Of a stretch of 64,000 nucleotides of DNA, positions 13,133-58,427 are shown piece by piece. Numbering within the stretch: position 1 is the first letter of the stretch; the number at the start of each line of letters is the position of its first letter. The notes beneath the pieces are model-generated. The model did not search any database and was not told the DNA's origin. It worked only from the letters and a program-made list of their open reading frames with translations. Where the stretch lies: positions 29,395 to 93,394 of the forward strand of contig PLIO01000202.1 in assembly GCA_003140075.1 (NCBI GenBank), in the 5' to 3' direction. This DNA comes from Acidobacteriaceae bacterium. GTDB lineage: Bacteria > Acidobacteriota > Terriglobia > Terriglobales > Acidobacteriaceae. A program made the translations under genes and the position numbers.

Positions 13133-13170
13133 GCGCTATTTTGCCATGACCGCGCGATACTCGATATGCA

Positions 13171-15714: not shown

Positions 15715-16270
15715 TCAACCTGGCCGCCTTGTCGTGGATGTCAATAAATGTAGCGACGTACATTGTCTCCTCAAGAGTGATGCCGCACAACTCCTTTTTG
15801 TTTAGCCGATGCGACGGCTCAGAGTCATTCTGTGGTGAGGGGTTTTTCTTTTGTGATCGTTCCGGATTCCGGGAGGTGTTTGCGGGCGGGGCGGAAGTGC
15901 ACACGCCCGCCTACGCGGCCTGCGAGGTTGACGGTTGCTTCACCCTATGCGAGCAGGTTTAGGCCGCTCTGGCTTCCATATACGCTTTCTAATATGGAAG
16001 TTGTAAGGTCAGGGGCGCTGGAGGCCATCGGCAGTTTGGTTCGAAAACTTTAGAACAATTCTCAACCAAGTTGAAGCCGTAGCGTTGCCTCGCTCGGTGA
16101 TTCAATTCAAATGATTGCTCTGCGGACTCGTGTCTGCAGGCGGTTTCTTGTGTTCTTGCTGACACTGTGTGTCTCGCGGTTTACATCGTCTTGAGCGGTG
16201 ACCTCTGGAAATCCTTGGAAATCCCCCATTTTCTGGGGTATCCAATTTTGGTGCGTACCTTGCTTTCTAT

Positions 16271-16298
16271 TTGCAGCGTCGGTTTCGCAGTTTATAGT
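16271..16298 (+). promoter_or_regulatory. Candidate sigma70-type promoter of the envelope operon (TTGCAG-N16-TATAGT)
   Basis: Hexamers read by eye about 24 nt upstream of ATG 16322. An AGGAG Shine-Dalgarno lies at 16314-16318. There is no experimental support. Confidence 0.3.
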
Positions 16299-16321
16299 GC
16301 AGTGTTCAGAAAGCAGGAGTC

Positions 16322-18244
16322 ATGAGACGAACATCGCTCGTCTCTGTCCAAAGCGCAGTAGCGGCTGGCTTCTTCCTGGTGCTTGTGCTCGGAGCGGTCG
16401 TGGTGTGGCGGGCCTCGCGGGCACTGCATTCGGCTGCACAAGATGTCCGTTCGGAACACGAGATCCTCTTTCTGGTTCGACCGCTTCCGGCGGTGAACAC
16501 CGATTTCGAGCCGATCAGCTCTCCCGCTGTATTTTTCCAGGCCGCGCATTTCCAGGATCATCTTTATGTGGCCGGCCCGGCAGGACTGCTCGAATATGAC
16601 ACGAGCGGGGGTCTGCTCCGCCAATACACCGTCGGCAGCGAATTACCTGGATCGCCGCTGATTGCGCTCGCTCCCGCCGTTCTGGCCGACGCTCGTGAAC
16701 CCGAACTCATCATTGCGACCGCCAACGACGGACTGCTGGCTTTCAATGGGCGCGCCCTTCGGCAGATCTTGCCCTACGACTTCGATACGCGCGCCATCAC
16801 CACGATTATGTCGTTCGCTTCCGGTCATCTTCTTATGGGGACCAAGAAGAAGGGCGTTCTGGTCTACGACGGGAAGCGGATCACGGTTCTGCACTCCACG
16901 TTGAAGGACAAGTACGTGACCGCGCTTGCGGGCAGCGAGTCCGATCTTTGGATCGGTACTTTGGCCGGAGGCGTGCTTCACTTCCATGCGGGTGAGACTG
17001 ACAGCTTCGCCGAAGCCGAGGGATTGCCCGATCCGCAAGTCACATCGCTCGCCGTGGCCGGTGACAACACATACGTTGGTACGCCGCTCGGCGTAGCGGT
17101 CTTCGATCGTGGACGGTTCTCCCGGGTGCTTGCGCCCGGAGTGTTGGCCACTGCGCTGTTCGCAACTCGCGACCAGCTTTACGTTGGCTCAGAAGATCAG
17201 GGGATGATTTCGGTTCAGCTCGCGGGGCGCCGCCCGAATCCAAACGCCGGGCAAGATTCGCAATTATCCGAAGTGCGGCAGCTTTTTGTTTCCGGGGACA
17301 CGATGTTCGCGGTGGCTCGTAACGGGCTCTACCGCATGAAGCCTCGCGAATTCGGGTGGCAGCGAGTGCTGGAGGCAGGCGCAGCCATCCTGAGCGATCG
17401 CAATATTTCCGCTTTGGCAACGGATGGGAGCGGCCGGCTCTGGGTTGGGTATTTTGATCGGGGCCTCGACATTCTTACCGCCGATAGCAGCCGCGCCACC
17501 CACGTCGATGACGAGCATGTGTTTTGCGTCAATCGAATCTTTCCCGATGCGAGGGCCGGCACAATCGATGTGGCTACCGCGAACGGACTCGTTCGCTTCG
17601 ACAATGCCGGCAACGAGCAGCAGGTGCTGACTCACAGCGACGGACTTATTGCCGACCATGTGACCGATGTCGCCGCCTACCGCGATGGGCTTGCCCTCGC
17701 GACTCCCGCCGGACTCACCTTCCTCGACGCCACCGGTGCGCGGAGCATGTATGCATTTCATGGTCTGGTAAATAACCATGTCTATGCGCTCGGCGTTTCC
17801 GGCGACGAGCTCATGGCCGGCACGCTCGGTGGCATCTCCGTTCTTGACAAAGGCAACGTAGCGGCGAACTACACCACCGCGACTTCGAACCTGAAGCACA
17901 ACTGGATCACTGCGGCGGTTCCGGTCGGCGGCGAATGGATGGTCGGCACCTACGGGGCAGGCGTTCTTGGGCTTGACCGCGCTGGGCATTTCCATTCTTT
18001 CGAGAAGGCTTCCGGACAATTTGAAGTAAACCCGAATGCAATGCTGGTAACTCCGGATTATGTTCTGGCGGGCACTTTGGGAAACGGTTTGTATCTCTAT
18101 GATCGACAGTCCGGGCGCTGGTCCGTGATCGACAGCGGATTGCCGTCTTTGAACGTGACCGCACTTGCTCGCGGCAATGGCTATATCTACGTGGGCACTG
18201 ACAACGGGCTGGTTCGTATTCCAGAGCAGAAACTGCGCTCATGA
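16322..18244 (+). CDS. Membrane-anchored beta-propeller protein with two-component-regulator-propeller (Reg_prop)-type repeats and no output domain
   Basis: 640-aa ORF with an N-terminal TM segment (AVAAGFFLVLVLGAVVVW). At least 9 repeats of the hydrophobic-G-T-x-x-G-hydrophobic-x-x-F/D type follow (DLWIGTLAGGVLHF, YVGTPLGVAVFD, LWVGYFDRGLDIL, VATANGLVRFD, LMAGTLGGISVLD, IYVGTDNGLVRI). Confidence 0.7.
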   Translation: MRRTSLVSVQSAVAAGFFLVLVLGAVVVWRASRALHSAAQDVRSEHEILFLVRPLPAVNTDFEPISSPAVFFQAAHFQDHLYVAGPAGLLEYDTSGGLLRQYTVGSELPGSPLIALAPAVLADAREPELIIATANDGLLAFNGRALRQILPYDFDTRAITTIMSFASGHLLMGTKKKGVLVYDGKRITVLHSTLKDKYVTALAGSESDLWIGTLAGGVLHFHAGETDSFAEAEGLPDPQVTSLAVAGDNTYVGTPLGVAVFDRGRFSRVLAPGVLATALFATRDQLYVGSEDQGMISVQLAGRRPNPNAGQDSQLSEVRQLFVSGDTMFAVARNGLYRMKPREFGWQRVLEAGAAILSDRNISALATDGSGRLWVGYFDRGLDILTADSSRATHVDDEHVFCVNRIFPDARAGTIDVATANGLVRFDNAGNEQQVLTHSDGLIADHVTDVAAYRDGLALATPAGLTFLDATGARSMYAFHGLVNNHVYALGVSGDELMAGTLGGISVLDKGNVAANYTTATSNLKHNWITAAVPVGGEWMVGTYGAGVLGLDRAGHFHSFEKASGQFEVNPNAMLVTPDYVLAGTLGNGLYLYDRQSGRWSVIDSGLPSLNVTALARGNGYIYVGTDNGLVRIPEQKLRS

Positions 18245-20616
18245 AAAATCTCATCTTTTCGATTCTCATCTCGCTCTTGACGTCGACACTACTGTTTGCC
18301 GACGCGGGCATTCTTATTCCTCGCGACAAGCAGCAGCCCGATCCCGCGATCCTCTCGCTCGAAGAAATGGAAATCACGATCCGCATCGACAATGGCGACG
18401 CCCGCGTGTTCGTGCGCCAGGTGTTTGCCAATCACACCGGCGGCATTCAGGAGGGCAACTACATTTTCGCTCTGCCCAGCCACGCTACGATCTCCGATTT
18501 TGCCACGTGGGACGGGCCGGTGAGGATTCCCGCCGTTATTCTCGAACGCAAGCGCGCCGAAGAGATTTACAACCAGCTGAAGCAGCAGTCGATCGATCCC
18601 GGCCTGCTGCAGATGGGGGAACGTGGCTCCGAAGAAGCCAAGCGCACGTCTGTTTTCAGCGCCCGCATCGTTCCGATTCCAGCTTTCGGAACGAAACGGC
18701 TGGAGATCGAGTATCACGAATCGATTCCGGTGGAGAATCTGAAGTCGTACTTCGCCATCCCACTGCGACCGGACGCATATCAGGCCCAGGCCGCGCGCCA
18801 TCTTCGCATCAATTTCGAACTGCACACAGCGCATGCCATTCGCAACTTTCAGGCGCCCGCAAAGAACTTTCCACTGCAACTCGAGCAGAACACCGCTCAC
18901 CTCGTCCAAGGCCATTTCGAAGGAGAGAACGTCAACCTGGGCGAGGATTTCGTAATCACTTACGATCTGGATCCCGCGGCGGCGGATACGCTGCAGATTC
19001 TGACGTATCGCAATCCGGTTAGCGGGCAGCCATCGCCAACCGAAACCGCGCCTGTTCGTACCACGAACGAGCCCGGCTTTTTTGAAGCGGAAGCTTTGCT
19101 CGGACCCGGGACGGGGTCCGCTCCCACCGCAAGCGCAGCCAGCGGCCCTCCCAAGACGGTTATCGTATTGTTCGATACATCGCTTTCCATGCAATGGGAA
19201 AAATTAGAGCGCAGCTACCAGGCTCTGGAAACGCTGCTGCGAACGCTCCGCCCCACCGACCATTTCAGCCTCGTGGTCTTCAATTCGGAAACCCACGCGT
19301 TGCCGCTCAGTGCTGCGAATGGCGGCAACGTCCAGCACGCAATTGATTTCGTCCGCGCCAGTCGATTGCGCGGTGGCACCGATATTCAACGCGCGCTCCA
19401 GGCCGGACTCCAACAGGCTGCAGATCCTGCGGCGTCCAATGCTTATCTGGTGATTCTGAGCGACGGCGGCGCGACCCGCGGTCCCATCACGAACGGAAAA
19501 CTTGCAGCGTGGTACGCCTCGGCGTGGAAGCAACTCCTGGAGACTCAGCGCCCGCGTACTTACATTCTCGCCGTCGGCGACGATGCCAACTTGCCGCTAT
19601 TCCGCATGCTGGAACGGCAGGATGGAGTGCTCGAACACGTGCTTTCGACCGAGCCCATGGAGTTCAAGCTGAACTCGTTCCTGTCGAAGATCGGCCGAAG
19701 TCCGATCGGGCAGTTGGATCTTGCGGTCGTGCCGGAGAGCGCCGTTGATACTGTCTACCCGCTGCAAGCCGCGACTTTTTCCGGATCGCTGGCTTCGTGG
19801 GTCGGACGTTACCAGAAGCCGCAGGAGAACGTCACCTTCGCGGTGCGCGGCTTGCGCGACGGGTCTCGTGTAGAGCTGACGGGGAAAACTAACTTCCCGC
19901 GCGAGTCTTTCGATCACCCGCAACTGCCTCGTCTCTGGGCTCGAGCTCGCGTGGATGCGCTGCTCGAGAAGATCGAGCGCGAAGGCGACGATCAAGCCAC
20001 CATCGACGAGATCATCCGCCTGGCGCGCCAGTACAAGTTCGTTACTCCCTACACTTCGTTCCTGGCTGTGCCGCGTGCGTTGTTGCGTCCACGCGTCATT
20101 CGGCCTGGCGACCCCATACTTCGCGTCAGAACCGACCCATCGATCACGTCTGTTGTCGCGCTGTTTCCGTTTGGATTGATGCAGCCGCTGCGTCACCTCT
20201 CGTCGGAAGATATTTGGCAGACCCGCTTTCTTGCTCCCACTGACATGCAGGATGGGACCTACACCGTGCGCCTCATCCTGCGCGACCAGCTCGGCAGAAC
20301 GTATCGTGAGTCGAAAACGTTCGTGATTGCCAGCAAGCCGCCGGTGGTCGAGGTGAAGCTCGACCACAAACGCTTCCAGCGCGGGCAGGCGATCGACCTG
20401 AAGGTTCACGCGTCGCAGAGCACGCGGACGCTGGTAGCGCGGCTGGATGGTACGGCACCGGTTGAACTCCGCTGGGATCCGCGAGCAGGCGCCAATACCG
20501 GCGAGTTGCTCATTCCCGAACAAACCATTCCTGGTTCTTACAAACTGACGGTCACCGCCGAAGATATTGCCCACAACATCGGCACCGGGGAGGTGCAGAT
20601 TGAAATCCTTCCTTAA
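18241..20616 (+). CDS. Secreted VIT domain + von Willebrand factor A domain protein with C-terminal beta-sandwich modules
   Basis: 791-aa ORF with an ATGA overlap with the upstream gene and a signal peptide MKNLIFSILISLLTSTLLFADAG. It has VIT-like N-terminal features, a vWA MIDAS motif (VIVLFDTSLSM, LVILSDGGAT) and the FVTPYTSFLAVP motif common in VIT-vWA proteins. Confidence 0.8.
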   Translation: MKNLIFSILISLLTSTLLFADAGILIPRDKQQPDPAILSLEEMEITIRIDNGDARVFVRQVFANHTGGIQEGNYIFALPSHATISDFATWDGPVRIPAVILERKRAEEIYNQLKQQSIDPGLLQMGERGSEEAKRTSVFSARIVPIPAFGTKRLEIEYHESIPVENLKSYFAIPLRPDAYQAQAARHLRINFELHTAHAIRNFQAPAKNFPLQLEQNTAHLVQGHFEGENVNLGEDFVITYDLDPAAADTLQILTYRNPVSGQPSPTETAPVRTTNEPGFFEAEALLGPGTGSAPTASAASGPPKTVIVLFDTSLSMQWEKLERSYQALETLLRTLRPTDHFSLVVFNSETHALPLSAANGGNVQHAIDFVRASRLRGGTDIQRALQAGLQQAADPAASNAYLVILSDGGATRGPITNGKLAAWYASAWKQLLETQRPRTYILAVGDDANLPLFRMLERQDGVLEHVLSTEPMEFKLNSFLSKIGRSPIGQLDLAVVPESAVDTVYPLQAATFSGSLASWVGRYQKPQENVTFAVRGLRDGSRVELTGKTNFPRESFDHPQLPRLWARARVDALLEKIEREGDDQATIDEIIRLARQYKFVTPYTSFLAVPRALLRPRVIRPGDPILRVRTDPSITSVVALFPFGLMQPLRHLSSEDIWQTRFLAPTDMQDGTYTVRLILRDQLGRTYRESKTFVIASKPPVVEVKLDHKRFQRGQAIDLKVHASQSTRTLVARLDGTAPVELRWDPRAGANTGELLIPEQTIPGSYKLTVTAEDIAHNIGTGEVQIEILP

Positions 20617-23600
20617 TTCATCGCGCAGAAGGGTATCGAGCCGGCGCATGCGTCTGCTGGCTATGGCTGTGTTGGTGCTTGCGGCCGGCTCGGCCATCGC
20701 TGCTCTGGGCGAGCTGCCCTCGTGGGTTCGCAACATCGAAGGATCGAGTGTGCTGGAGGCTGCTTTCTTCCGCATGATGCCGTTGCCCGGAGGTGCCGTG
20801 CCCTTTCGACGTCCTCCGCGCGAGACGCGTCCCGCGCTCTCCGAACTCATCAAGAATCAGCCACGCAATGGCGAACTATATTCTTTGCGCGCTCTGGAGG
20901 ACCAACAGCAGCTCGATTTCAAAGCCGCTGAATCGGATTGGAAATCCTACGTCGATAACTCATCGGAAAAGATCGAAGCTCAGCTCGCGCTTGCCGACTT
21001 CTATCATCGCCGTTTGCGGCCAGCGGACGAGATCAAAATACTATCTCTGGTTGCAACTGCCGCGCCCCTTGCGGCCGAGAAACTCACAACGTCCACGCAA
21101 CAACGCTCCTGGCAGGCGTTTGAGCGCATCTTCGGCGTGGTGCAAGCTCAGGGCCTCGCAAAAGACGCTTCCATCGCTCAGTACCGCGCCTGGATCGCGC
21201 GCTATCCGCAGGAGGAATCGCTTTACGTACGGTTCCTGCAATTTCTGGTTGCGCAAAAAGAATATGCCGCCGCCGGACAGCTGATCGCCGATTACCGCAA
21301 GCAGTTTCCGGGCGATCAGGTTTTTCCGGTGAGAGCGAAGGCGATGGTTGAATATCGGCGTGGCTCTGCCCGCGAGGGCTTGGCGGTGTATGAGCAGGAG
21401 TTTCAGCCGCTCTGGGACCCCGACTTGGTGAAAAGTTATTTCGATCTGCTGCGCGAGACCCAGAATCTTCGGAAGTTTCTCGACCAGGCTCGCGCCTCGC
21501 TGAACTCCGATCCCGAGGACTTGAACGCAACCGCCCGCATTTTCTATTACTACCAGCAGCAGGGCAAGCTTGAGGTGGCGCAGCAGGCAATCGCCGACTT
21601 CCGTCTACACAAGGAAGCTAGCAAGTCGCCGTGGACTTCGCAGGAACTCTACATCTGCGCACGGCTTCTGGAAGACATTCATGCCTATCCCGAGGCAGCG
21701 CGATATTATTTCGCGCTCTACAACAGCACGGGACGCTCCGACGCGCAGGAGCAGGCGATTGCCGGGCTCACGAATATTTTGCTGACCGCGCCGGAGATGC
21801 CGATCCGCTTTGGTTCGGGCGAACTCTCCATGTATCGCGACATCGCCACGATGGATCAGGGGCCCGGCTATTTGAACGGGATTCTTTCTCTGATCCTGAA
21901 CACAACCGAACCAGCTTTGAATTACTCAACGGAAGAACAGCGCGCGGTGCCTTACTTTCATCGTTCGCGGGCGGCCGAATTGCTGGCGCTGCTCGATGCG
22001 AAGTTCCCGGGTTCCGCTCGGCGACCTGGACTTCACGCCGGTCTGCTCCAGTTCTATTCCGCCACGGCGGAAAGCGACGCGGTCATTCAGGGTGGGCGCG
22101 ACTTTCTTGCGCAGTTTCCGAAGGCTTCGGAGCGTACCGCGGTTGCACTGCTCATGGCTGATGCCTACTCGCGCAAAGGCGATACGGCGAGTGAATTCGC
22201 CATCTACGATTCTGTGCTTCAGGAACTCGCATCCCAGGCGCAGAACGTGCCCCTGGGATCTGCGACGGAAGGGATGAATTCGTTTTACTACCCGCGCGGT
22301 GCAATGAACGCTGGCATGAATAACGCCGCTGGGGAGGGGGAAGAAGGCGAAGGAGAAGCGGAGGGCGGAGCACAGGGAAATACCGGATCGCGCCGACCGA
22401 TCGCAGGGGTTTTCCAGATCAGTTCCGCCATCTCACCTGCCCCATCGGCTGGAGCGCGTTCCGCCGAGTACGAGCGGGTTTTGGAGCGGTATCTCGCTCG
22501 CCTGGTGCAAATGAAACAAGTCCCGCAGGCGCTGACTGTGCTGCGGCGCGAGATCGACCGCAACCCTGACGACCCCGGCCTATACGAACGGCTCGCGGTT
22601 TTTCTTGAGCAGAACCAGTTAGGAGCCGAGCAGGAAGAAGTCTACCGCCGCGCGATGTCGCGTTTCCCGGACCGCTCGTGGTACGACAAGCTGGCGCGCT
22701 TCTATCTGCGTCAAAGAAGGAATTCCGACTTCGAACAGCTGACACGCGAAGCCCTCAAGACTTTCAGCGGCAGCGATCTCGAACGGTACTTCTACAACGT
22801 CAACGGCGGCGGCCCCGTGCTGTACCTGCGCTTGAATCAGTATGCCAATCAGCGTTTCCCGCACAACCCGGTATTCGTTCGGAATCTTCTCACGGCCTAC
22901 CGAACGCCCGCGACCACCGACCCGGTTGCCTGGGAATCGTTGTTGCGGCAGCACTGGTTCGAGGAAGCGAACCTGCGCGCTGAGTTCTTCGAATTTCTCT
23001 CCCGCACGGGCAGACTGGAAGCGGAGCTGAGTGCTTTGCGCCAGAGTGCGCCGGATGCTGCCAGTTGGGATGGCAATCCTGCCGCCGCCGAATTCCTGGC
23101 GAATGCCAACCTGTGGCGTTCGCACTTTGAAGAGAGTGCGCCTGTGCTGCGATCGCTTGCCGGTCAATATCCCGCCGAGTTCGAGATTGCGCGCACCGCT
23201 TCGTCCGTGTATCGCTCCCTGGCGTACTTCGATTCCGCCGATACGGCCATCGCCGCCCGGATCGAAGACAATTTGCTTCAGGCCAATCCGGGCAATACTG
23301 AGATCCTCGCGCGTGTTGGCGATATCTATGCCGACCGCGATCAGTTTGCGCAGGCCGCTCCGTACTGGGAACGGATTCCACAAGTATCGCCGGGACAATC
23401 CGGCGGATATCTCGACGCCGCTACCATCTACTGGGATTACTACGATTTCGATAACGCGCTGCGCCTGCTTAAGCAGGGGCGCGCTCGTCTCGCCGATCCC
23501 AATCTCTATTCCTACGAGGCAGGCGCTATCTACGAGAACCAGCGCGACTATGCGCACGCTATCGACGAATACGTAAAAGGCTCCCTCGCGGGCGCCGACG

Positions 23601-26600
23601 ACTCGTCTGCCGAAAACCGCTTGCTCCAGCTTGCGCGCCGCCCCAAGTTCCACGACCTCGTTGATCACAGCACTGCGAGTATCGTGGCATCATCCAATCC
23701 CTCTATGCCTGCGATCTATCTGCGGGTGAAGGTGCTGGAAGCTCAGAACCGCAGGCCGGAAATGGAAACGCTCCTCGACACGATGACCAACGGCACAACT
23801 TCCATCGAGCAGGCGGAAGACCTGGAAAACCTGGCGCAACAGAAATCGCTCGAAGCTGTACGCCAGCACGCGCTTGAGAAACAAGCCGTACTCACCACCG
23901 ACCCCGTCGCCCGCCTCGAACTTCGCTATGCGCTGATTCGAATGTATGAAGGCCGCAAGGATCTCGCGTCGGCGCAGAAGAACGTTGAAGCGCTCTACCG
24001 CGAGAATCCCAAGATTCTTGGCGTTGTCCGCTCCACGGTCGATTTTTATTGGCGCACCAAGAACTATCCGCAGGCAATCTCGGTTCTGCTGCAGGCCGCC
24101 AGGGACGCTTATCCCGAGCTGAGCGCTCAGTTCACCTACGAGGCCGCTCGCAAATCGACCGACGCGAAGCAGTACCCGCAGGCGCGCGAACTGCTCGCGC
24201 AGCTATTGAAGGATTCTCCTTACAACGGTGAATACCTTGCGGCCATGGCAGACACCTACGCGCAAGCCGGTGACGATCAGGGTTTGAAGCAGTTCTACAC
24301 GCAAAAGATCGCGCTGTTCCGGTCTGCGCCGCTGCCGGCGGATGCGCGTAAGGCGCAGGTTGCCACCTTGTGTCGCGGTCTGATTCCCGCGCTCACTCGA
24401 ATGAAGGACTACGCGGGTGCGGTTGATCAGTACATCGAACTCATCAACAGTTTCCCGGAAGACGACACGCTCGTCACCGAAGCCGCGTTGTATGGATTGC
24501 GCTATCAGCGCCAGCAACAACTCGTCGATTTCTATGCGAAGACGGTCGCGCAATCACCGCGTGACTATCACTGGTCCACTGTGCTGGCCCGGCTGCAGAC
24601 TAATCTGGAGGACTACCCGGCTGCGATTGAGACCTACGCCAAGGCGATCATCGTGCGGCCGGATCGCTTCGATCTTTACACCGCTCGGGCCGGTCTCGAA
24701 GAACGGCTGATGCACTTCGACGATGCAGTCTCCGACTACGAACATATCTATCAGCTCGCGTACAAAGATCCGCAGTGGATGGAGAAAATCGCTGCTGTGC
24801 GCGCGCGCCAGGGTAAAAAGACTGAAACCGTAACCGCCCTCAAAGCCGCGTTGATCGATGGCCGGCCGGAGAACGCGTCCAACTATTTCGAGGTCGCCCA
24901 CCGCCTTGAATCCTGGGGGATGCTTGCGGAGGCCCGCACTTTCGTCGAACTCGGAATCAAGACCGCCGGACCTGAACTGCTGGCCTCAGCAGAGAATCAG
25001 CCCGGCGCGAAGACCTACGTTCGCATCATGACTCGCCTCCGTCAGCAGGAGCTGGCATACACCAGGCTGCAGAGTTCGCTCGCGGAAGCATCTTCGAACC
25101 TGCCTGTCCTGAAAGAACAGGTCGCAACGCGAGGAATCGCCGCCATCACGGATGCCCAGTGGCGGGACAGAGTGCTCCACATGCGCATCGAGACTGCGCG
25201 CAACGGCATGGCCGCCGTTCTCACGGAGATGGGCAATACCGTGAACACATACTTCACACCAGAGGAGAGACTCGGCTTTGCGCACTTTGCCGAATCGAAG
25301 AAGATCGGCATGAACTTTGCCGACGTCGAGAAGTTTGCGATTCCTCTTGTCCAAAGCGCCGCTCTTGCCGACCAGGAATCCCGATGGCGTTTCGAGGTGA
25401 TGATGCAGGATCCGAATCGCAATCCGAATTTCTATAGCCGCCTGCCAGCCTTTGTGGGCCTGCAGCGCCGCCGGGGACGTTTTGCTGAACTTGGATCGCA
25501 GTTGGAGCAGTTCGCAGCGCTACTGCCCCGAACCAACCACAATGCTCCGCTGCTTGAGGCCGCCGACGCCTACCGCTCCGCCGGCGACCAACAAAATGAG
25601 TTGCGAATACTCTCAAACATTTCGGCGTCCTATCTCGACAACACCCACCAGCAGCATCTGTTCCAATTGCTACTGGCGCAGCGGCCAGAGGAGCTGGTCG
25701 CGATCAGTTCGGGATGGAATTCCGCAGGCGAAAATGCCGCCAACTTCGCGGTTGCGAACGGAGGATCTGCGCTCGCGCGCAACGCAGTTGTGGCTCGCGG
25801 AAAAAGCCGTCCGCCGGTCTGGACCAAGTCGTATCTCGGGCTGGTTGGACTTTACTATGCCGAGCCCGCTGCCGATGTGAACGAAGCATTCCTCGGCGCC
25901 CTCGGAGACAAGACGATCGCAGAGCGCCTGGCCACACCGGTTGACCGTGCGCAGCAGCTCGCCGGCGATACTTGGTTCTACTACGGATCCCGCTACGGCG
26001 AGTACCTCGGGACCACGAAGCAAAGTAATCCTGAGGACTATCTTCCCGCCATCCTGGAGCAGAGCCCAGCGTCGTCTTTCGGATATTTGACTTTGGCTGA
26101 CTATTACTTTGGCTCAGGCGACATGGAACACGCTATCGCGGATTACAACCACACGCTCGAACTCTCTCCCAATCGTCCGGATATTCACGGCAGTCTTGCC
26201 CTCGTTTATTACAAGCGCGGCGATCGGGCTGCCGCCGTCGGCGAGTGGAAGCAGGTTTTCGCGGCGCTTTTGAAGCAGCTCAATAGTGCGCACGTTCCGG
26301 AAACTTTCTGGGAGGACTTCGGGCATACTTGCGATCAGCTGTGCACCCGTCATCTGTATTCGGAACTTAAACCCGACGCCGACGCCATCGTTCGAACTTA
26401 TCTCCACCACAATGGCACCTACCGCTCGAACGCCATATTGCAACCCGCTTATGCTGCCATCGGTGACCCGGTATCAGCCACAGCGTGGCTGCTCGATGAT
26501 TCCGCGGCGGCGCAGGATCCCACACAGATTCTGGCTGATGTCATCGACGCGCCCTGGATTCCGCTGCCCCAACGCGCGTTAATCTATCAGCGTATTCTCC

Positions 26601-28045
26601 AATCCAAGCAAGATGCGCTTGTAAGCCTAACTGGCCTTGAGCGCGACAACGCTCAGCAAGCCCTCCGTTCCTGGCAAGTGCGCTCGATCAAGTACCTCAT
26701 CCTCACCAAACAGTATGCGTCCGCAGCCGATGCCATTGCGGCTTTATCAAAAGAGACCCGCGAGGCGGAGTCCGCCGCTCTGGTTCCACTCGATCTGCAA
26801 GTAGCTGCGCAGCTGGGAACACTGGACTCTAAAATCGCCGGGTATCGCACCGACCCGCGGAACACTCCCGATTCAAGTCTGCTTCGAACCGCGGCACGGC
26901 AGCTATTCGAGGCCGGAGACAAGCAGTCCGCGCGCAAGATTCTTGAATTCGTATTTGCTCGCGAGATCGATGAGCACCAGCTCAACGCCGCCAACTTCAT
27001 GGGCCTCGCGGAGATTCGCCTTGCTTCGGGAGACACTTCTGGTGCGCTCGATCTGCTGCGCCGCTTGGTTCTGGTCGTCGGGAATCCGTTCGAGAACCTC
27101 GATCCCGCTGCGGCTTTGCTGGAGAAAACCGGCCACAATGCTGAGGCTGTCGAGTTTCTCGATCAACTGGTCACGTCGGCGCCTTGGGACCCTTCTTACC
27201 GTTTGCGTCTCGCCAAAGCCAGAGCGGGCGCGGGGCAGAATGCCGTCGCGCCCGCTGAGGCTCTCGTCCCGATCGCGGCGGGATTGGAAGTTCCTTATGA
27301 TCTCCGTCTCAGAGCTGCTTCTGCTCTCGCGGGCCAGCGGCACTCCGATCTGGGAAGCGGCGAACTGAACCTGCTTGCCGGAAACGCATCGGCCATCTCT
27401 CCAACCGCCGCCGACAAGTTCTACTTCTACGAAGGTCGCATCAAGGCCGCGCAGAACATGGCCGACCCGCGGGCGAAACTCGAACTGCTAAGCCACTGCA
27501 TCATCGATTTTCCACAGCGAGACGAAGCTCGCATACCGCTGTTCCAGGCGGCGGCGACTTTGCGCTCCGATGAATTTGCTGTTGGAGTTCTGGAACCGCA
27601 GCTACAGAAGCAATTCCTCGGCAGTGCTACTGTCTCCGGAGCCGAGTACGAAGAGGAACAAATCACTGCGTCCGACAATGACGAAGCAGATGAAAGCGAA
27701 TCTACAAACAGCGCTATTCCGCAACCGGCCAAATTCTCCCGTGCGCAGCAAGCACAACTGGCGCAGATGGTCGGCGACGTGATGACGCGCCTGAATCGGC
27801 TGGCTGAGGCCGTATCGTATTTCGAAGTAGCGCGTCGCCTGGCGGATTCGCCGGAGCTACGCAAGGAAAGTAGAAGAAAGATTGCAGACCTAAAGGCCAT
27901 ATTGCGGATGCAGCAGCAGAACGCCGGGCGCCATCCCCTGCTGCATGAAGCTCTGGAGCAGGATCGCATCGTTCGGCCGCGGTTGTTGGCTCGCTCCGCT
28001 CCTGGGCCTAAGGCAGTCACTCCGAAAGGAGGCGTGAAACCATGA
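20600..28045 (+). CDS. Giant exported tetratricopeptide-repeat (TPR) protein (~2,481 aa)
   Basis: One uninterrupted ORF. It is alpha-helical repeat sequence throughout, with many A..Y..A....P TPR-like units (e.g. AIADYNHTLELSPNRPDIHGSLALVYYKRGDRAAAVGEWKQV), and an N-terminal signal/anchor MRLLAMAVLVLAAGSAIA. Candidate starts are TTG 20600 (GGGGAGGTG upstream) and ATG 20648. The track start at 20567 overlaps the upstream gene by 50 nt and is less likely. Confidence 0.75.
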   Translation: MKSFLNSSRRRVSSRRMRLLAMAVLVLAAGSAIAALGELPSWVRNIEGSSVLEAAFFRMMPLPGGAVPFRRPPRETRPALSELIKNQPRNGELYSLRALEDQQQLDFKAAESDWKSYVDNSSEKIEAQLALADFYHRRLRPADEIKILSLVATAAPLAAEKLTTSTQQRSWQAFERIFGVVQAQGLAKDASIAQYRAWIARYPQEESLYVRFLQFLVAQKEYAAAGQLIADYRKQFPGDQVFPVRAKAMVEYRRGSAREGLAVYEQEFQPLWDPDLVKSYFDLLRETQNLRKFLDQARASLNSDPEDLNATARIFYYYQQQGKLEVAQQAIADFRLHKEASKSPWTSQELYICARLLEDIHAYPEAARYYFALYNSTGRSDAQEQAIAGLTNILLTAPEMPIRFGSGELSMYRDIATMDQGPGYLNGILSLILNTTEPALNYSTEEQRAVPYFHRSRAAELLALLDAKFPGSARRPGLHAGLLQFYSATAESDAVIQGGRDFLAQFPKASERTAVALLMADAYSRKGDTASEFAIYDSVLQELASQAQNVPLGSATEGMNSFYYPRGAMNAGMNNAAGEGEEGEGEAEGGAQGNTGSRRPIAGVFQISSAISPAPSAGARSAEYERVLERYLARLVQMKQVPQALTVLRREIDRNPDDPGLYERLAVFLEQNQLGAEQEEVYRRAMSRFPDRSWYDKLARFYLRQRRNSDFEQLTREALKTFSGSDLERYFYNVNGGGPVLYLRLNQYANQRFPHNPVFVRNLLTAYRTPATTDPVAWESLLRQHWFEEANLRAEFFEFLSRTGRLEAELSALRQSAPDAASWDGNPAAAEFLANANLWRSHFEESAPVLRSLAGQYPAEFEIARTASSVYRSLAYFDSADTAIAARIEDNLLQANPGNTEILARVGDIYADRDQFAQAAPYWERIPQVSPGQSGGYLDAATIYWDYYDFDNALRLLKQGRARLADPNLYSYEAGAIYENQRDYAHAIDEYVKGSLAGADDSSAENRLLQLARRPKFHDLVDHSTASIVASSNPSMPAIYLRVKVLEAQNRRPEMETLLDTMTNGTTSIEQAEDLENLAQQKSLEAVRQHALEKQAVLTTDPVARLELRYALIRMYEGRKDLASAQKNVEALYRENPKILGVVRSTVDFYWRTKNYPQAISVLLQAARDAYPELSAQFTYEAARKSTDAKQYPQARELLAQLLKDSPYNGEYLAAMADTYAQAGDDQGLKQFYTQKIALFRSAPLPADARKAQVATLCRGLIPALTRMKDYAGAVDQYIELINSFPEDDTLVTEAALYGLRYQRQQQLVDFYAKTVAQSPRDYHWSTVLARLQTNLEDYPAAIETYAKAIIVRPDRFDLYTARAGLEERLMHFDDAVSDYEHIYQLAYKDPQWMEKIAAVRARQGKKTETVTALKAALIDGRPENASNYFEVAHRLESWGMLAEARTFVELGIKTAGPELLASAENQPGAKTYVRIMTRLRQQELAYTRLQSSLAEASSNLPVLKEQVATRGIAAITDAQWRDRVLHMRIETARNGMAAVLTEMGNTVNTYFTPEERLGFAHFAESKKIGMNFADVEKFAIPLVQSAALADQESRWRFEVMMQDPNRNPNFYSRLPAFVGLQRRRGRFAELGSQLEQFAALLPRTNHNAPLLEAADAYRSAGDQQNELRILSNISASYLDNTHQQHLFQLLLAQRPEELVAISSGWNSAGENAANFAVANGGSALARNAVVARGKSRPPVWTKSYLGLVGLYYAEPAADVNEAFLGALGDKTIAERLATPVDRAQQLAGDTWFYYGSRYGEYLGTTKQSNPEDYLPAILEQSPASSFGYLTLADYYFGSGDMEHAIADYNHTLELSPNRPDIHGSLALVYYKRGDRAAAVGEWKQVFAALLKQLNSAHVPETFWEDFGHTCDQLCTRHLYSELKPDADAIVRTYLHHNGTYRSNAILQPAYAAIGDPVSATAWLLDDSAAAQDPTQILADVIDAPWIPLPQRALIYQRILQSKQDALVSLTGLERDNAQQALRSWQVRSIKYLILTKQYASAADAIAALSKETREAESAALVPLDLQVAAQLGTLDSKIAGYRTDPRNTPDSSLLRTAARQLFEAGDKQSARKILEFVFAREIDEHQLNAANFMGLAEIRLASGDTSGALDLLRRLVLVVGNPFENLDPAAALLEKTGHNAEAVEFLDQLVTSAPWDPSYRLRLAKARAGAGQNAVAPAEALVPIAAGLEVPYDLRLRAASALAGQRHSDLGSGELNLLAGNASAISPTAADKFYFYEGRIKAAQNMADPRAKLELLSHCIIDFPQRDEARIPLFQAAATLRSDEFAVGVLEPQLQKQFLGSATVSGAEYEEEQITASDNDEADESESTNSAIPQPAKFSRAQQAQLAQMVGDVMTRLNRLAEAVSYFEVARRLADSPELRKESRRKIADLKAILRMQQQNAGRHPLLHEALEQDRIVRPRLLARSAPGPKAVTPKGGVKP

Positions 28046-29751
28046 AACGCATCGCCATATTCCTCATCATTGCTAGCGCGTGCGCGGGCCTCGGCTGGAC
28101 TGGTTACCGTGGAGCCAATCCGGCTGAGGTAACACCACTCTCGAAATTCGTCTCTGCTGGCCCGTTGCTTTACCTGGAGGCCAAGGATTTTTCCGCACTC
28201 CTTGCGGACTGGAACGCTTCGCCGCAGAAAAAGCAATGGAGCGAAAGCAGTAACTTCGAAGTCTTTTCCCGCTCGCGCCTCTTGTTGCGCCTTAACGGTG
28301 CGGGTGGTCAGTTCGCTGCTGCTGCCGGACTTCCCCCCGACATGAACTTCCTTTCCCAGGTTGCCGGAACTCGCAGCGCTCTGGCCCTGTATGACATCGG
28401 GAACCTGCAATTCCTTTACGTCACTTACCTGCCGTCCGCAAAATCCATGCAGACGACGCTCTGGCAGACTCGCGCCAAGTTCGAGCCACGCAGCGCCGGC
28501 GGCGTGAACTTCTACGTGCGCCGCGATCCCGAGTCGCAAAAGGAGGCCGCCTTCGCGGTTTCCGGCGACTACTTGCTGCTTGCGACCCGCGAAGATCTTC
28601 TGGCGGCCGCTCTGCAATTGATGGCTGGAAGCCAGGATCGCACGGTCGAAAGCGAACCGTGGTGGACGCAATCGATTGCCTCTGCCGGAGAAGCCGGCGA
28701 CTTGCGGATGGTTCTGAACCTCGCGAAGATTGTTCCCAGTTCGTACTTCCGCACCTACTGGGTACAGCAAAACATCACGGACCTGGGGCAGTACTCCGCA
28801 GAGGTCTCCGATTTGTTCCGTTCCAGCAAACAAGACCGCGAAGAGCGTGTGTTGATTCGGAAGGCCGCACCGGACGCGGCGCCGTCTGCGGATGGGCTCG
28901 AAGCCGCCGCCGACCTCGTTCGGCTCGTTCCCGACGGTACGGGAATTTACGAAGCGAAGGCGCATCCCTCGGCCGATTCGTGCTTTGATTTGCTCGAGAC
29001 CAAGCTCCTCGCGCCACATCTAGGCCCGGCACCTGCCTCGCAAATCGCCCCGCAGGTGCAGCTCACTTCAGGTGAAGCGGGTGCAGGTTCCGATCTGGAA
29101 ACCCGAATTGATCAGTCGCCCGTGCAGCGCTCCATCACGCCACCAAATACATCGGGATTGAAGGATTTCCTTGCCAAAACTCAAATCCTCGCCTCACTTG
29201 AGGTGCAATCCACCGAGCGCGACACGGCGGGTGTCTTCGTAAGAATTCATTCCGCGGCTGTGCTTGTCGCACCTTCCGACTGGAACGAGGCAACCGTCCA
29301 ATCTGCGCTCGCCGGTTTTGTGCGTCCAGGCCTCACTGCCAGCGAACTTGGTGTAGCGTGGCAGCAGAAATCTGGCTATCAGGAACTCGACGGCCTGTGG
29401 CCTCTCGTCGCCTCAGTTCGCGGCAAATATCTTCTCATCTCTGATGATCCGAACTTGATGACGGCAATGTTGTCCAACTTCGACCTCAAATCGGATGCGC
29501 AACCCGCAGTTTTCATCGCCGGATTCAACCATTCTCATGAGCGCGCCAACTTCGCGCGCTTCGCGGGCGTAGTCGACCGCCCCAACCGGGCTCAATTCAA
29601 CGTGCCGGGCATGGAGCGGCAACCGCAATTCTTTTCTGAAAACATGGCCAGCCTGAGTTCGACTCTCGCCGCTGTCGGCGCAGAACGCGTCACAGTTCGC
29701 ACCGATGGCGCGAAAGTCTTGCAGACGGTAACTTACGAATGGTCGCAATGA
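28042..29751 (+). CDS. Exported protein of unknown function (possible lipoprotein)
   Basis: 569-aa ORF with an ATGA overlap with the TPR gene and AAGGAGG 10 nt upstream. The N-terminus MKRIAIFLIIASACAG is signal/lipobox-like. I recognise no catalytic motif. Confidence 0.6.
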   Translation: MKRIAIFLIIASACAGLGWTGYRGANPAEVTPLSKFVSAGPLLYLEAKDFSALLADWNASPQKKQWSESSNFEVFSRSRLLLRLNGAGGQFAAAAGLPPDMNFLSQVAGTRSALALYDIGNLQFLYVTYLPSAKSMQTTLWQTRAKFEPRSAGGVNFYVRRDPESQKEAAFAVSGDYLLLATREDLLAAALQLMAGSQDRTVESEPWWTQSIASAGEAGDLRMVLNLAKIVPSSYFRTYWVQQNITDLGQYSAEVSDLFRSSKQDREERVLIRKAAPDAAPSADGLEAAADLVRLVPDGTGIYEAKAHPSADSCFDLLETKLLAPHLGPAPASQIAPQVQLTSGEAGAGSDLETRIDQSPVQRSITPPNTSGLKDFLAKTQILASLEVQSTERDTAGVFVRIHSAAVLVAPSDWNEATVQSALAGFVRPGLTASELGVAWQQKSGYQELDGLWPLVASVRGKYLLISDDPNLMTAMLSNFDLKSDAQPAVFIAGFNHSHERANFARFAGVVDRPNRAQFNVPGMERQPQFFSENMASLSSTLAAVGAERVTVRTDGAKVLQTVTYEWSQ

Positions 29752-30605
29752 GAAATCTGGCGCTGCTACTAATCGCGAGCCTGCTGACGACGTCGTCTTC
29801 CGAGCGTGCCGCCGTTCCGACGCCGGAGCGCGAGAACCTTCCTCGGAACTTGTTGTTTGCCCAATCGGCCAACCAGATGTTGAATCGGGATTTCCCTAGC
29901 AGCGATATTTCGTTTCTGCTACTCGACGCGTCCACAGGCAGAGTGCTGGCCTCGCGGTGGGAAAATCCTGAAGCGCCCATTCCTCTTGGTTCGCTTGTGA
30001 AGCCGTTCACCGCGCTGGCATATGGTGAGCATCACGCATTCCGCTACCCGGCGCACATTTGCCGCGGAACCGCTAGCGGTTGCTGGTTTCCGCGTGGCCA
30101 CGGTGAAGTCGATCTTGTGTCCGCGATCGCATACTCCTGCAACTCTTATTTCAGAATGCTGACCGCAGGAATGAGCGCCCCCGATGTATCGCCCACCGCT
30201 ACGCGCTTTGGCCTCACACTTCCCGCTCCGGAGACCGCGGGGCCTGCACTTGCGGGTCTCGGCAATCGTTGGCGGATTTCGCCGATGAGCATGGCGCGTG
30301 CTTATTTGGAATTGGTCCGCTGGCGCGATCAACCCGGTGTGCGGGAGATTTTCGCCGGAATGGCGCAATCGGCGAGGGAGGGAACCGGATCCGGAGTGGA
30401 TCGCGCTCTGCCATTTCCCGACGCCCTGACGAAGACCGGTACGGCGCAGTGCACTCACCTTCATCGTGCTCCCGGCGACGGCTTCACCATCGCGATGGCG
30501 CCGTCTGACAATCCCCAACTTCTGCTCATGGTTCGCGTGCATGGTGTTCCCGGGGCCGAGACGGCTAAGATTGCAGGACAGATGTTGCGCCGACTTGAGA
30601 AGTGA
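29748..30605 (+). CDS. Stand-alone penicillin-binding / beta-lactamase-fold (transpeptidase-like) domain protein
   Basis: ~285-aa ORF. ATG 29748 gives an ATGA overlap; ATG 29739 is an alternative start. It has a signal peptide and all three active-site motifs: SxxK (GSLVKPF), SxN (YSCNSYF) and KTG (KTGTA). Confidence 0.7.
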   Translation: MRNLALLLIASLLTTSSSERAAVPTPERENLPRNLLFAQSANQMLNRDFPSSDISFLLLDASTGRVLASRWENPEAPIPLGSLVKPFTALAYGEHHAFRYPAHICRGTASGCWFPRGHGEVDLVSAIAYSCNSYFRMLTAGMSAPDVSPTATRFGLTLPAPETAGPALAGLGNRWRISPMSMARAYLELVRWRDQPGVREIFAGMAQSAREGTGSGVDRALPFPDALTKTGTAQCTHLHRAPGDGFTIAMAPSDNPQLLLMVRVHGVPGAETAKIAGQMLRRLEK

Positions 30606-31744
30606 CTGGCCTTGCACGGATGAAAATCACAATCGCATTCTTCTCGCTGATTTTCGTAAGTTCCTCGGGTGTAGCCCAGGACGTGCGCGTCGGTGTGTTC
30701 GGCCTGTTCCATCCCGATCGACTTGTGGTCAGCGCTCGAACCGGTTCTGCAGTGGTTGTGCATGTCGCAGAGGAGTCCTTGGTGCTGGAGGAAAGCTCGG
30801 GTGTGAACATCGCCGACATCCGCGTCAGCGGGGACAACGTTGTTCTGCGCGTTGGAACCCGCATCTTCCATAACCCAAGAATCACCGTTACCAGCCGCAA
30901 CAACGGCCCCGCCGACTTCAACCTCGCCATCGCCGGTAGGATCACGCGGCACTATCGCGGCACGCTCGAAGTGAAACCTTATGCCCGAGCGCTTACGGCC
31001 GTTGTAACCATGGATCTGGAAACCGCCGTGGCCTCGGTTGTGGCTGCCGAAAGCGCGAGCGACACGCCAGCCGAAGCGGTGAAAGCTCTGGCCGTGGCGG
31101 CACGATCTTATTTCGCTGCCGGAAAAGGCCGCCACCACGATTTTGATTTCTGCGATACCACTCACTGCCAGTTTCTAAGAGCGCCGCCGGCAAACAACTC
31201 CTCCGCCGCGCAGGCGGTCGATGCCACTCGGGGATTGGTGATCGCTTACCAATCCCAACCTTTCGCTGCGATGTATACGCGCAGCTGCAGCGGGCGTACG
31301 CTCACTCCTGATGAACTAAGCCTGCCTCCCGCCGCTTATCCTTACTACTCTGTCGATTGCAAGTATTGCCGCGAGCACCCATCGCAATGGCAGAGCCGGC
31401 TCTCTTCTGAGGATGCTGTGGCCCTGCGGGGTTCGAACGAGTCTTCGCGGCTAAGCCTCGACCGTCGATTAGGATGGAGCGCCGTCCCAAGCAATACCTT
31501 CGTTGTCCGAAGAGAGGGCGAGCAAACCATCCTGCGGGGAGTCGGCCGGGGACACGGTATGGGCCTCTGCCAGGCTGGGGCCAAAGCAATGGCCGAAGAA
31601 GGCGCGACTTACCGCGAAATCCTTGCTCACTATTATGCGAATACAGACGTCATCCCGCTGGGCGGTGTTCCGCCACCGCGTCGATTGACCGAACGCTCAC
31701 GATCACGGCAATTCGACGGATTATCTGTACCGCTAAAGAAGTGA
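30602..31744 (+). CDS. SpoIID/LytB-domain protein (peptidoglycan lytic transglycosylase / amidase-enhancer family)
   Basis: 380-aa ORF with a GTGA overlap with the PBP-like gene; ATG 30620 is an alternative start. It has a signal peptide MKITIAFFSLIFVSSSGVAQD and the SpoIID signature PAEAVKALAVAARSYF...HHDFDFCDTTHCQ. Confidence 0.8.
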   Translation: MTGLARMKITIAFFSLIFVSSSGVAQDVRVGVFGLFHPDRLVVSARTGSAVVVHVAEESLVLEESSGVNIADIRVSGDNVVLRVGTRIFHNPRITVTSRNNGPADFNLAIAGRITRHYRGTLEVKPYARALTAVVTMDLETAVASVVAAESASDTPAEAVKALAVAARSYFAAGKGRHHDFDFCDTTHCQFLRAPPANNSSAAQAVDATRGLVIAYQSQPFAAMYTRSCSGRTLTPDELSLPPAAYPYYSVDCKYCREHPSQWQSRLSSEDAVALRGSNESSRLSLDRRLGWSAVPSNTFVVRREGEQTILRGVGRGHGMGLCQAGAKAMAEEGATYREILAHYYANTDVIPLGGVPPPRRLTERSRSRQFDGLSVPLKK

Positions 31745-31916
31745 TCGCTCGAATTCAAATTGTTGATTCCATGTCCCCACCGACAAATCTGAGGGAAGCG
31801 GCTAAGTCATTTTTCTGGTATTGGTTGCTCGCCGTAGGTCGAGATGAGCTCCGGATCGCTCGCGAACCATCGTGGCGGGTTCTTCAGCTTTGCAGCGCCG
31901 ACGCTGCAGAACATCA

Positions 31917-31946
31917 TTGACGGAGAGACGCAGAACGTCCTAAACT
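31917..31946 (+). promoter_or_regulatory. Candidate sigma70-type promoter of the his leader (TTGACG-N18-TAAACT)
   Basis: Hexamers read by eye. The -10 hexamer ends 9 nt before the GTG of the His-rich leader ORF. Confidence 0.3.
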
Positions 31947-31955
31947 TTAAGCGTT

Positions 31956-32030
31956 GTGACTTTGCTGAACCATCACGGCCACCATCATCACCATCATGCG
32001 ATAAGCGTGTCGGTGGAGCACTTCGGATGA
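31956..32030 (+). CDS. hisL: Histidine operon leader peptide (24 aa: V/M-TLLNHHGHHHHHHAISVSVEHFG)
   Basis: Small ORF GTG ACT TTG CTG AAC CAT CAC GGC CAC CAT CAT CAC CAT CAT GCG ... TGA. It has 8 His codons in a 9-codon window (31971-31997). A rho-independent terminator lies 29 nt downstream and hisI starts 122 nt downstream. The ORF is too short for the supplied ORF track. The symbol is by analogy only. Confidence 0.7.
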   Translation: MTLLNHHGHHHHHHAISVSVEHFG

Positions 32031-51123: not shown

Positions 51124-51262
51124 CACCCTTGGGCCACTCATTCCCGGATCGTGCCATTGCCACGGCGCGACTCCGGCCTGAGGATACTCGTGCTTGGGAA
51201 ATGGCACTCTAGATTGAATGCTATTTCCGGCGGACAAACGAGAGCGGATCAAGAGAATCAAA

Positions 51263-58147: not shown

Positions 58148-58427
58148 TCGTGCCGCTCACCATTCCCCACTCTCGTCAGGAGGAGCCACCATCGGCGAAA
58201 TGCACGAGGACTCGGTTTTCTCTTGACATCGCGGCCGCTTTAAAACACCATAAGCGGTCCCTTTGAAGCGATCCACTATACCCCTGAGTTTGTGGCCTTT
58301 CCGAAGCTCGCCCGGACTCGGATCTGTGGGCGGCGGCCGGAGGCCCGACTGTCTACAATTCATCCGTGGTGAGTTGATGTCCATTCTGGCGAGCGGGAGC
58401 AACTGGCCAAGAAATGGAGATAGGACC

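Follow-up and report, generated by a model that had tools for sequence, protein, structure and literature searches.

A conserved operon of six predicted exported proteins in Terriglobia, probably encoding an undescribed periplasmic complex

The six genes and their products

We analysed a 15.4-kb operon of six genes, here termed g1 to g6 (positions 16322-31744, + strand), that lies within a 64-kb stretch of DNA from an Acidobacteriaceae bacterium (assembly GCA_003140075.1, contig PLIO01000202.1; the whole 64,000 nucleotides are referred to as the window). A preliminary description made from the sequence alone had reported six same-strand open reading frames (ORFs) joined by ATGA/GTGA overlaps or short gaps, and all six were recovered at the same positions. 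As read from the sequence, four of the five junctions are 4-nt overlaps (ATGA at g1/g2, 18241-18244, at g3/g4, 28042-28045, and at g4/g5, 29748-29751; GTGA at g5/g6, 30602-30605), while at the g2/g3 junction a gap of 31 nt separates the g2 stop (20616) from the g3 ATG (20648). Judged by these overlaps together with the conserved gene order described below, we take the locus to be a single operon, and the overlaps suggest stoichiometric co-translation of the six genes. Exactly one hydrophobic segment, always N-terminal, is present in each product, with no C-terminal anchor or C-terminal hydrophobic segment in any of the six; this pattern suggests export, and all six are predicted to be exported, in line with the earlier proposal. 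The domain assignments made at that stage (Reg_prop, VIT-vWA, tetratricopeptide repeat (TPR), Transpeptidase and SpoIID) were all reproduced with Pfam and NCBIfam profiles (Pfam calls reported here for g1, g2, g3, g5 and g6 are above gathering score). Likewise, the motifs then described as intact, namely the DxSxS of the metal ion-dependent adhesion site (MIDAS), SxxK/SxN/KTG and the SpoIID glutamate, are invariant in ~40-47 orthologues.

The first gene, g1 (16322-18244, + strand), encodes a 640-aa protein with a signal anchor or signal peptide followed by Reg_prop-type blades (Pfam Reg_prop, 41.8 bits). About 14 blade motifs recur with a ~41-aa period, corresponding to two seven-bladed beta-propellers; the chain ends after blade 14, and domain scans returned no output or kinase domain. 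Its closest relatives in the Protein Data Bank (PDB) are periplasmic glycan-sensor domains of Bacteroides hybrid two-component systems (HTCS) (3v9f, E 8e-14; 4a2l, E 3e-9; 3va6, E 1.5e-5). Although g1 is of the same Reg_prop double-propeller type as these sensor domains (e.g., BT4663, PDB 4a2l), it shares only the propeller part of the HTCS architecture and lacks the remainder (Y_Y_Y, transmembrane segment, HisKA/HATPase, receiver, AraC-type/DNA-binding output).

Overlapping its end, g2 (18241-20616, + strand) encodes a 791-aa predicted secreted protein in which a VIT domain (Pfam, 61.7 bits) is followed by a vWA domain (Pfam VWA, 39.2 bits) and by C-terminal immunoglobulin/macroglobulin (Ig/MG)-like beta-sandwiches, where weak Big_13, MG2 and He_PIG matches were found (MG2 sub-threshold, 20.4 vs. 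32.8 bits). The closest PDB sequence matches are ITIH4 (9c4f, E 1e-17) and ITIH1 (6fpy, E 1e-13), with ~320 residues similar, and the MIDAS residues D312xS314xS316 (nt 19174-19188), T412 and D447 are invariant in 40 sequences. With VIT preceding vWA and a complete MIDAS, g2 falls among the VIT-vWA (ITIH-like) proteins and has the same VIT + vWA + C-terminal extension architecture as ITIH1 and ITIH4; it differs from them in being bacterial and, by prediction, periplasmic, in its extra Ig/MG-like C-terminal domains, and in showing no sign of the heavy-chain cleavage/ester-transfer chemistry and no bikunin-like partner. Against TIGR03788, a marine proteobacterial sortase target family, g2 scores 139.8 bits (E 1e-40), far under the cutoff of 551.65.

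The giant of the set is g3 (20648-28045, + strand), a predicted secreted TPR/alpha-solenoid protein of 2,465 aa and a presumed scaffold, which carries a signal peptide and no further hydrophobic segment. An all-TPR protein of 2,481 aa had been described here: its composition stands, in that Pfam, NCBIfam and PDB returned only TPR-type matches, but its length does not. The most likely start is ATG 20648, at which both the signal peptide (MRLLAMAVLVLAAGSAIAA) and the homologue alignments begin, with TTG 20600 (2,481 aa) and TTG 20567 (2,492 aa) as less likely alternatives. Among the best partial NCBIfam matches of g3 are PrsT, associated with PEP-CTERM and exopolysaccharide (EPS) (E 1e-25, 89.5 bits vs. 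a cutoff of 312.2), and PgaA.

The fourth gene, g4 (28042-29751, + strand), encodes the 569-aa predicted secreted protein in which no recognisable motif had been noticed, and none emerged: g4 has no Pfam match even at E<=10, a result that held for 59 diverse family members, and no NCBIfam or PDB sequence match. The family comprises 830 representatives at 50% clustering and, on sequence grounds, we regard it as new. An AlphaFold2 model built from 59 sequences (predicted local distance difference test (pLDDT) 88, predicted template modelling score (pTM) 0.83) has an alpha/beta/alpha fold, and Foldseek returned Treponema pallidum TP0453, in its crystal forms, as the only significant PDB match (target-normalised TM-score 0.45-0.50; probability 1.0; E 3e-5 to 9e-4). 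As summarised in PMC5421087 (citing Luthra 2011), TP0453 has an alpha/beta/alpha fold with amphipathic helices that insert into membranes, and a lipid/glycolipid carrier role has been proposed for it; in that summary the role is itself a proposal. Both g4, by prediction, and TP0453 are exported envelope proteins, but they share no sequence similarity, and g4 is double the length of TP0453 and lacks a conserved Cys. The g4 N-terminus resembles a cleavable AxA↓Q signal peptide. We considered g4 as a lipoprotein, given an ASAC sequence in the window copy, and rejected this assignment as the Cys is not conserved in the family.

Within g4, we identified an acidic linear motif, G-x-x-x-D-L-E-T-R-I-D-x-x-P (residues 347-360; nt 29080-29121, + strand), in which E353 (92%), I356 (92%) and D357 (98%) are conserved among 59 representatives that are 32-51% identical overall, compared to only 17-25% conservation at linker positions beside it. 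The surrounding linker (residues 327-365) is the sole low-confidence/disordered stretch of the model (pLDDT 51-55). Docking peptides typically take the form of a conserved motif within a disordered linker, and we read DLETRID as a candidate docking peptide that may bind either the MIDAS of g2 or a TPR groove in g3. It resembles the L/I-D/E-T/S motifs that integrin I-domains bind through their MIDAS.

The last two genes encode a predicted pair of accessory peptidoglycan (PG) enzymes. The product of g5 (29748-30605, + strand; 285 aa, or 288 aa if the start is 29739) is a predicted secreted, pedestal-less transpeptidase domain of the class-B penicillin-binding protein (PBP) type (Pfam Transpeptidase, PF00905, 52 bits vs. 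a cutoff of 22.1). When 10 orthologues were combined into a profile, it matched class-B PBPs (7rd0, E 1e-9; PBP2 8yjx, E 1e-8; MrdA, PBPA and SpoVD), and 47 sequences show no variation in the three motifs that mark the class-B transpeptidase domain, S85xxK88 (nt 29991-30002), S133xN135 (nt 30135-30143) and K232TG (nt 30432-30440). Only a signal peptide precedes the domain, without a membrane anchor or the pedestal (PBP dimerisation) domain that couples to a shape, elongation, division and sporulation (SEDS) polymerase, and the TIGR03423 score is 48.7 bits vs. a cutoff of 455. The SxN and KTGT motifs and the class-B PBP profile matches ruled out a class D beta-lactamase or a BlaR-type sensor.

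Its neighbour g6 (30602-31744, + strand; 380 aa; start GTG 30602 or ATG 30620) encodes a predicted secreted SpoIID/LytB-type lytic transglycosylase. Scores of 68.6 bits for Pfam SpoIID and 153.6 bits for TIGR02669 (cutoff 83.3) place it in the SpoIID/LytB domain family (TIGR02669, PF08486), outside the sporulation SpoIID equivalog TIGR02870 (100.1 bits, under the cutoff of 234.75). In the alignment to Clostridioides difficile SpoIID (5i1t, E 1e-16), Glu150 (nt 31049-31051), invariant in 44 sequences, aligns with the Glu of the 5i1t GEM motif, a position that we take to be that of the SpoIID catalytic Glu; C184/H188/C189 (nt 31151-31168) and a GHG motif are nearly invariant in the same 44 sequences. 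From their invariant motifs, both g5 and g6 are probably active enzymes.

Conservation of the locus and its surroundings

Scanning of species-representative genomes with g4 yielded 45 loci, all from Terriglobales or Acidobacteriota metagenome-assembled genomes (MAGs) (56-84% identity), and a metagenome scan with the family alignment yielded 80 further loci, which were close relatives only (63-81% identity) and added no taxonomic breadth. Gene positions were then counted over 133 loci, with each gene scored where flanking sequence suffices (10-kb flank). The gene for g3 adjoins g4 in 101 of 112 loci (misses are mostly split alignments), g5 adjoins g4 in 92/99 and g6 lies near g4 in 93/99, while g2 was found in its expected position in 70 of 72 loci and g1 in 61 of 69 (misses are mostly loci with <100 nt of g1 inside the flank). 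A propeller gene precedes g2 in related loci wherever the sequence extends that far, and all related loci of sufficient length encode a giant protein of 2,145-2,475 aa immediately ahead of g4. Collectively, the same gene order and tight spacing recur in ~130 independent loci with differing flanks, and thus the arrangement is far beyond chance. The flank comparison concerns the downstream side, the fetched loci of relatives not reaching upstream of g1; there, the histidine-biosynthesis (his) flank is kept in the three nearest relatives only, and no conserved seventh gene was found.

Recurrence of the gene order beyond close relatives had been named in the preliminary description as the test of its proposal, and the order is indeed kept at much greater distance, with g4 identity as low as 32-37%. 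In ten distant contigs whose g4 is 32-42% identical, the giant TPR gene lies directly upstream of g4 (10/10), and the nine that reach past the TPR gene contain a VIT-vWA gene and, ahead of that, a propeller-sized ORF. In contig L136, the VIT-vWA gene is in fragments and the ORF ahead of it has only 192 aa and no Pfam match; in L047, the sequence contains only the tail of the upstream gene. The L136 fragments are four short ORFs (192, 244, 192 and 154 aa; 215-3070 of a 480-kb contig) and probably reflect assembly frameshift errors rather than a split gene. The best conserved member of the set is g2, with 51-61% identity in distant loci, followed by g1 (~50%) and g5 (37-44%), compared to 33-45% for g3, g4 and g6. 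Named homologues all belong to Terriglobia (Terriglobales, Sulfotelmatobacter, Terracidiphilus, Bryobacteraceae and Acidoferrales), save for one third-party (TPA) MAG labelled 'Dormibacteraeota'.

The PG-enzyme genes are distributed differently from the other four. PBP-like and SpoIID genes are carried by the distant contigs L047, L048, L054, L136 and L137 (with an amidase-signature gene sitting between the two in L048), whereas in L050, L052 (Bryobacteraceae), L053 and L138 the 10 kb downstream of the four-gene core contain neither, an absence confirmed with hidden Markov models (HMMs) for L050, L052 and L053. With five distant lineages carrying the pair and four lacking it beside the core, we describe the unit, by comparison of these sequences, as 4+2: an invariant core (g1-g4) plus an ancient but dispensable or relocated g5-g6 pair. 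Among close relatives, L056 and L074 retain only remnants of this pair. In L056, a 114-aa PBP-like fragment (11614-11955) occurs with no SpoIID gene, and in L074 a SpoIID fragment (11643-12035) comes right after g4 with no PBP-like gene; either case could be real decay or an assembly error. In L048, the most divergent lineage, the amidase-signature gene (PF01425) occupies 12388-13833, and a gas-vesicle cluster (GvpA, K, G, L/F and an AAA protein; 14959-19349) follows on the opposite strand.

In the window, the operon is bordered upstream by a 607-bp intergenic region (15715-16321), presumed to hold promoter or regulatory sequence, and by the divergent gene of a large S9-family peptidase (13171-15714, - strand), and downstream by a histidine-biosynthesis operon. 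The intergenic region is without a long conserved ORF or an Rfam family, and neither a tRNA nor an Rfam element was found. A sigma-70-like match lies at 16270-16298, but such matches in this region are fewer than shuffle expectation, and we therefore claim no promoter; promoter and terminator consensus matches are overall at or below shuffle expectation. An AGGAG Shine-Dalgarno-like sequence precedes ATG 16322 by 3 nt. Long antisense ORFs within the genes (e.g., 27427-29019) were dismissed as an ordinary by-product of ~59% GC. Horizontal transfer, suggested by a lower GC skew in the operon (about -0.03 to -0.07 over 16000-32000, compared to +0.05 to +0.16 in neighbouring + strand genes), was ruled out: operon and flanks have equal GC content, and codon position 2 accounts for most of the skew difference, reflecting the amino-acid composition of exported proteins.

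Several other genes were recorded in passing. A gene 4 kb upstream of the operon (9685-12279, + strand) encodes an 864-aa Ser/Thr protein kinase that has PD40 (WD40-like) propeller repeats at its C-terminus, and a tandem paralogous pair of 194-aa genes of the Pfam 'AA_synth' family (PF06684) lies at 6199-7364 (+ strand). Farther downstream, two ~1,262-aa proteins with a CarboxypepD_reg domain and an outer-membrane beta-barrel (47179-50967 and 58263-62054, + strand) and, between their genes, a TonB C-terminal-domain protein (51218-52117, + strand) are unrelated to the operon. In the distant contig L053, a DPPIV_N/S9 peptidase gene (13160-15988) sits just downstream of the core, which may be coincidence, S9 peptidases being numerous in Acidobacteriota.

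Comparison with known envelope systems

The preliminary description knew of no characterised system with this composition, and we found no description of the gene set in profile libraries or literature. By sequence comparison, the locus falls outside every known system tested and appears new in composition. The nearest analogy that we found, one that the preliminary description did not draw, is to the bacterial α2-macroglobulin loci. The class I protein adjoins pbpC (PBP1C), and the class II protein belongs to six-gene operons, the products of which assemble into a periplasmic complex associated with the inner membrane (PMC3735191, PMC5764988). Like these class II operons (P. aeruginosa MagABCDEF and E. 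coli YfaA-T-S-Q-P), the present locus is an exported multi-gene operon around one very large periplasmic protein, and shares with them a SpoIID domain (YfaQ) and a PG-related partner (NlpC/P60-like YfaT/MagC; PBP1C in class I). In the E. coli K-12 operon (yfaA-T-S-Q-P; L046, 2,327,367-2,336,644), YfaQ ('tandem DUF2300') exceeds the SpoIID gathering score (27 vs. 23 bits) and YfaT (DUF1175) shows a weak match to NlpC/P60, so that the class II operon holds two PG-hydrolase-like folds. In BLASTP comparisons against a five-protein database, g6 aligns to YfaQ with E 5e-5 and g2 to YfaS with E 0.009.

The locus does not belong to either class, however. No A2M or thioester-domain (TED) Pfam match was obtained in the six products, and DUF2138, DUF1175, DUF2300 and DUF2135 are absent from g1-g6 and from 59 g4 family members. 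Homology of g4 to YfaA (DUF2138) was ruled out at the sequence level, with no Pfam match in those 59 members and an hhalign profile comparison giving a probability of 0.1-0.7%. The large proteins here are instead a TPR solenoid and a VIT-vWA protein, with neither a bait region nor a CXEQ thioester motif, and, in contrast to the class I A2M/PBP1C pair, there is no A2M and g5 is a bare transpeptidase domain without a transglycosylase domain. The resemblance to the α2-macroglobulin loci would accordingly be one of design rather than membership.

Similar partial likenesses were found elsewhere. The Bat/MoxR-vWA loci also encode exported vWA proteins together with TPR proteins, but g2 has a VIT domain and a signal peptide in place of the BatA/BatB membrane anchors, and Bat has no counterpart to the propeller, g4, the PBP-like protein or SpoIID. 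As previously stated for the Bat operon, MoxR (AAA_3) and DUF58 are absent: Pfam scans of the six genes and of 30 flanking ORFs throughout the window, with ORFs <180 aa only partly covered, gave no match to either. Defence-system signatures, also reported as absent, were missing in Pfam scans, and the six proteins have no PADLOC match at E<=0.001. The best partial NCBIfam matches of g2 and g3, to the sortase target TIGR03788 and to PEP-CTERM PrsT, score far below cutoffs, and we found no sortase or exosortase gene in the window, no LPXTG or PEP-CTERM tail in the products, and no polysaccharide-synthesis gene in the window. With the SpoIID-SpoIIM-SpoIIP engulfment machine, the locus shares the SpoIID/LytB domain of g6, its catalytic Glu and Cys/His cluster kept, but no SpoIIM or SpoIIP gene was found in the window, and the host is a non-sporulating diderm. 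In E. coli, the TPR proteins NlpI, LpoA and CpoB scaffold peptidoglycan enzymes, and the co-encoding of g6 with a second PG-active fold and a TPR protein is reminiscent of such complexes; in comparison to NlpI, g3 is ~8x larger and is not a lipoprotein.

Possible function of the complex

Together, these features suggest that the operon probably builds a previously undescribed complex in the periplasm, whose function we infer from its parts. The preliminary description had envisaged a machine for localised wall remodelling with PG enzymes at its centre. This emphasis is weakened, g5/g6 being absent in L050, L052, L053 and L138 and reduced to remnants in L056 and L074: since the unit is 4+2 with the PG enzymes optional, its core function need not be wall remodelling, and since both genes are absent next to the core in four distant lineages, wall editing cannot be that function. 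We tentatively favour, with somewhat less than even confidence, a Terriglobia-specific structural or adhesive scaffold on the inner-membrane side of the periplasm, with optional local peptidoglycan editing. In such a scaffold, the TPR solenoid of g3 (2,465 aa) would serve as the platform, and g2 would clamp an acidic ligand via its MIDAS metal site, for which the DLETRID peptide of g4 is the best candidate and a carboxylate of an envelope polymer an alternative; a TPR groove of g3 is the alternative candidate receptor for DLETRID. The double propeller of g1 would bind an envelope glycan and hold the complex at the inner membrane, and the TP0453-like fold of g4 might provide membrane or lipid contact if it acts as proposed for TP0453. 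Where present, g5 and g6 would edit cross-links and glycan strands around the assembly, allowing its insertion into, or tie to, the sacculus. A more specific version, which we consider possible though rather doubtful, is an integrin/ITIH-style adhesion assembly in which the g2 MIDAS clamps DLETRID on g3, g1 tethers the whole to the inner membrane, and g5/g6 wire it into peptidoglycan.

Several points weigh against the scaffold interpretation. All mechanistic steps beyond domain identity (contacts, localisation and activity) are ones that we infer from sequence; the resemblance of g4 to TP0453 is moderate (TM-score 0.45-0.50), with under half of g4 covered; g1 could be cleaved and soluble instead of membrane-anchored; a system encoded at another locus could carry the products past the periplasm; and the wall-editing pair is missing beside the core in four distant lineages.

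Among other explanations, a guard-and-repair role like that of α2-macroglobulin is unlikely, though the most probable of these. Here g2, held by g1, g3 and g4, would trap harmful proteins that breach the outer membrane, and g5/g6 would mend the wall. Both α2-macroglobulin classes are linked to PG enzymes (PMC3735191, PMC5764988), YfaQ has a SpoIID domain and aligns with g6, YfaT is NlpC/P60-like, the C-terminus of g2 shows weak MG2/YfaS matches, and six exported products come from one six-gene unit, as with the Mag proteins. Yet none of A2M, TED, DUF2138, DUF1175, DUF2300 or DUF2135 matches any of the six proteins, the g4-YfaA profile probability stays below 1%, bait region and CXEQ motif are lacking and MG2 remains sub-threshold; moreover, vWA/ITIH modules are adhesion modules rather than protease traps, and the presumed 'repair' genes are missing in four lineages. 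Somewhat less probable still is the handling or anchoring of a polysaccharide (capsule, EPS or biofilm matrix), in which g1 would bind glycan, g2 would cross-link as heavy chains do hyaluronan, and g3 would act like the TPR parts of BcsC, PelB, AlgK and PgaA. Terriglobia are EPS producers, g1 is closest to oligosaccharide-sensing domains and g2, among solved structures, to ITIH heavy chains; partial matches of g3 to PrsT and PgaA, and a weak match of the g2 VIT to PEP-CTERM-associated proteins, point the same way. These NCBIfam matches are, however, all far under cutoffs, no glycosyltransferase, polymerase, flippase, porin, exosortase or PEP-CTERM tail was found in the operon or the window, the flanks of relatives are variable and not EPS-related as a rule, and the PBP-like/SpoIID pair would be left unexplained.

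Two further explanations carry little weight. It is very improbable that g1 with its partner proteins senses a glycan of the envelope or the environment and signals via a kinase encoded elsewhere: g1 is homologous to sensor domains and the Ser/Thr kinase with PD40 repeats is encoded 4 kb upstream (9685-12279), but g1 lacks a cytoplasmic domain, exported scaffold and enzymes totalling ~5,100 aa are out of proportion to a sensor, and the operon has no conserved neighbours (the his flank occurs in the three nearest relatives only, a comparison that does not cover the region upstream of g1). A chance adjacency of six unrelated exported-protein genes, each domain type being individually common in Acidobacteriota, has almost no probability left in view of the 4-nt overlaps at the junctions and of an order and spacing kept in ~130 loci, down to 32% identity, as flanks change; synteny effectively refutes it.

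Terriglobia are among the most abundant soil bacteria, and their cell envelope is almost unstudied. Because the operon is large and kept across the class (~5,100 codons of exported protein), an important envelope function is probable. The locus sets an ITIH/integrin-like MIDAS protein and a sensor-type propeller in a context that is structural rather than signalling and, after the two α2-macroglobulin classes, constitutes a third case of a very large periplasmic binding protein encoded with a PBP or SpoIID-like enzyme, a hint that periplasmic machines may follow a general design rule. The DLETRID motif and the MIDAS site offer direct, cheap experimental handles, and an integrin/ITIH-style assembly, if true, would represent a new type of system, structural or mechanical, that spans the envelope in a dominant soil phylum.

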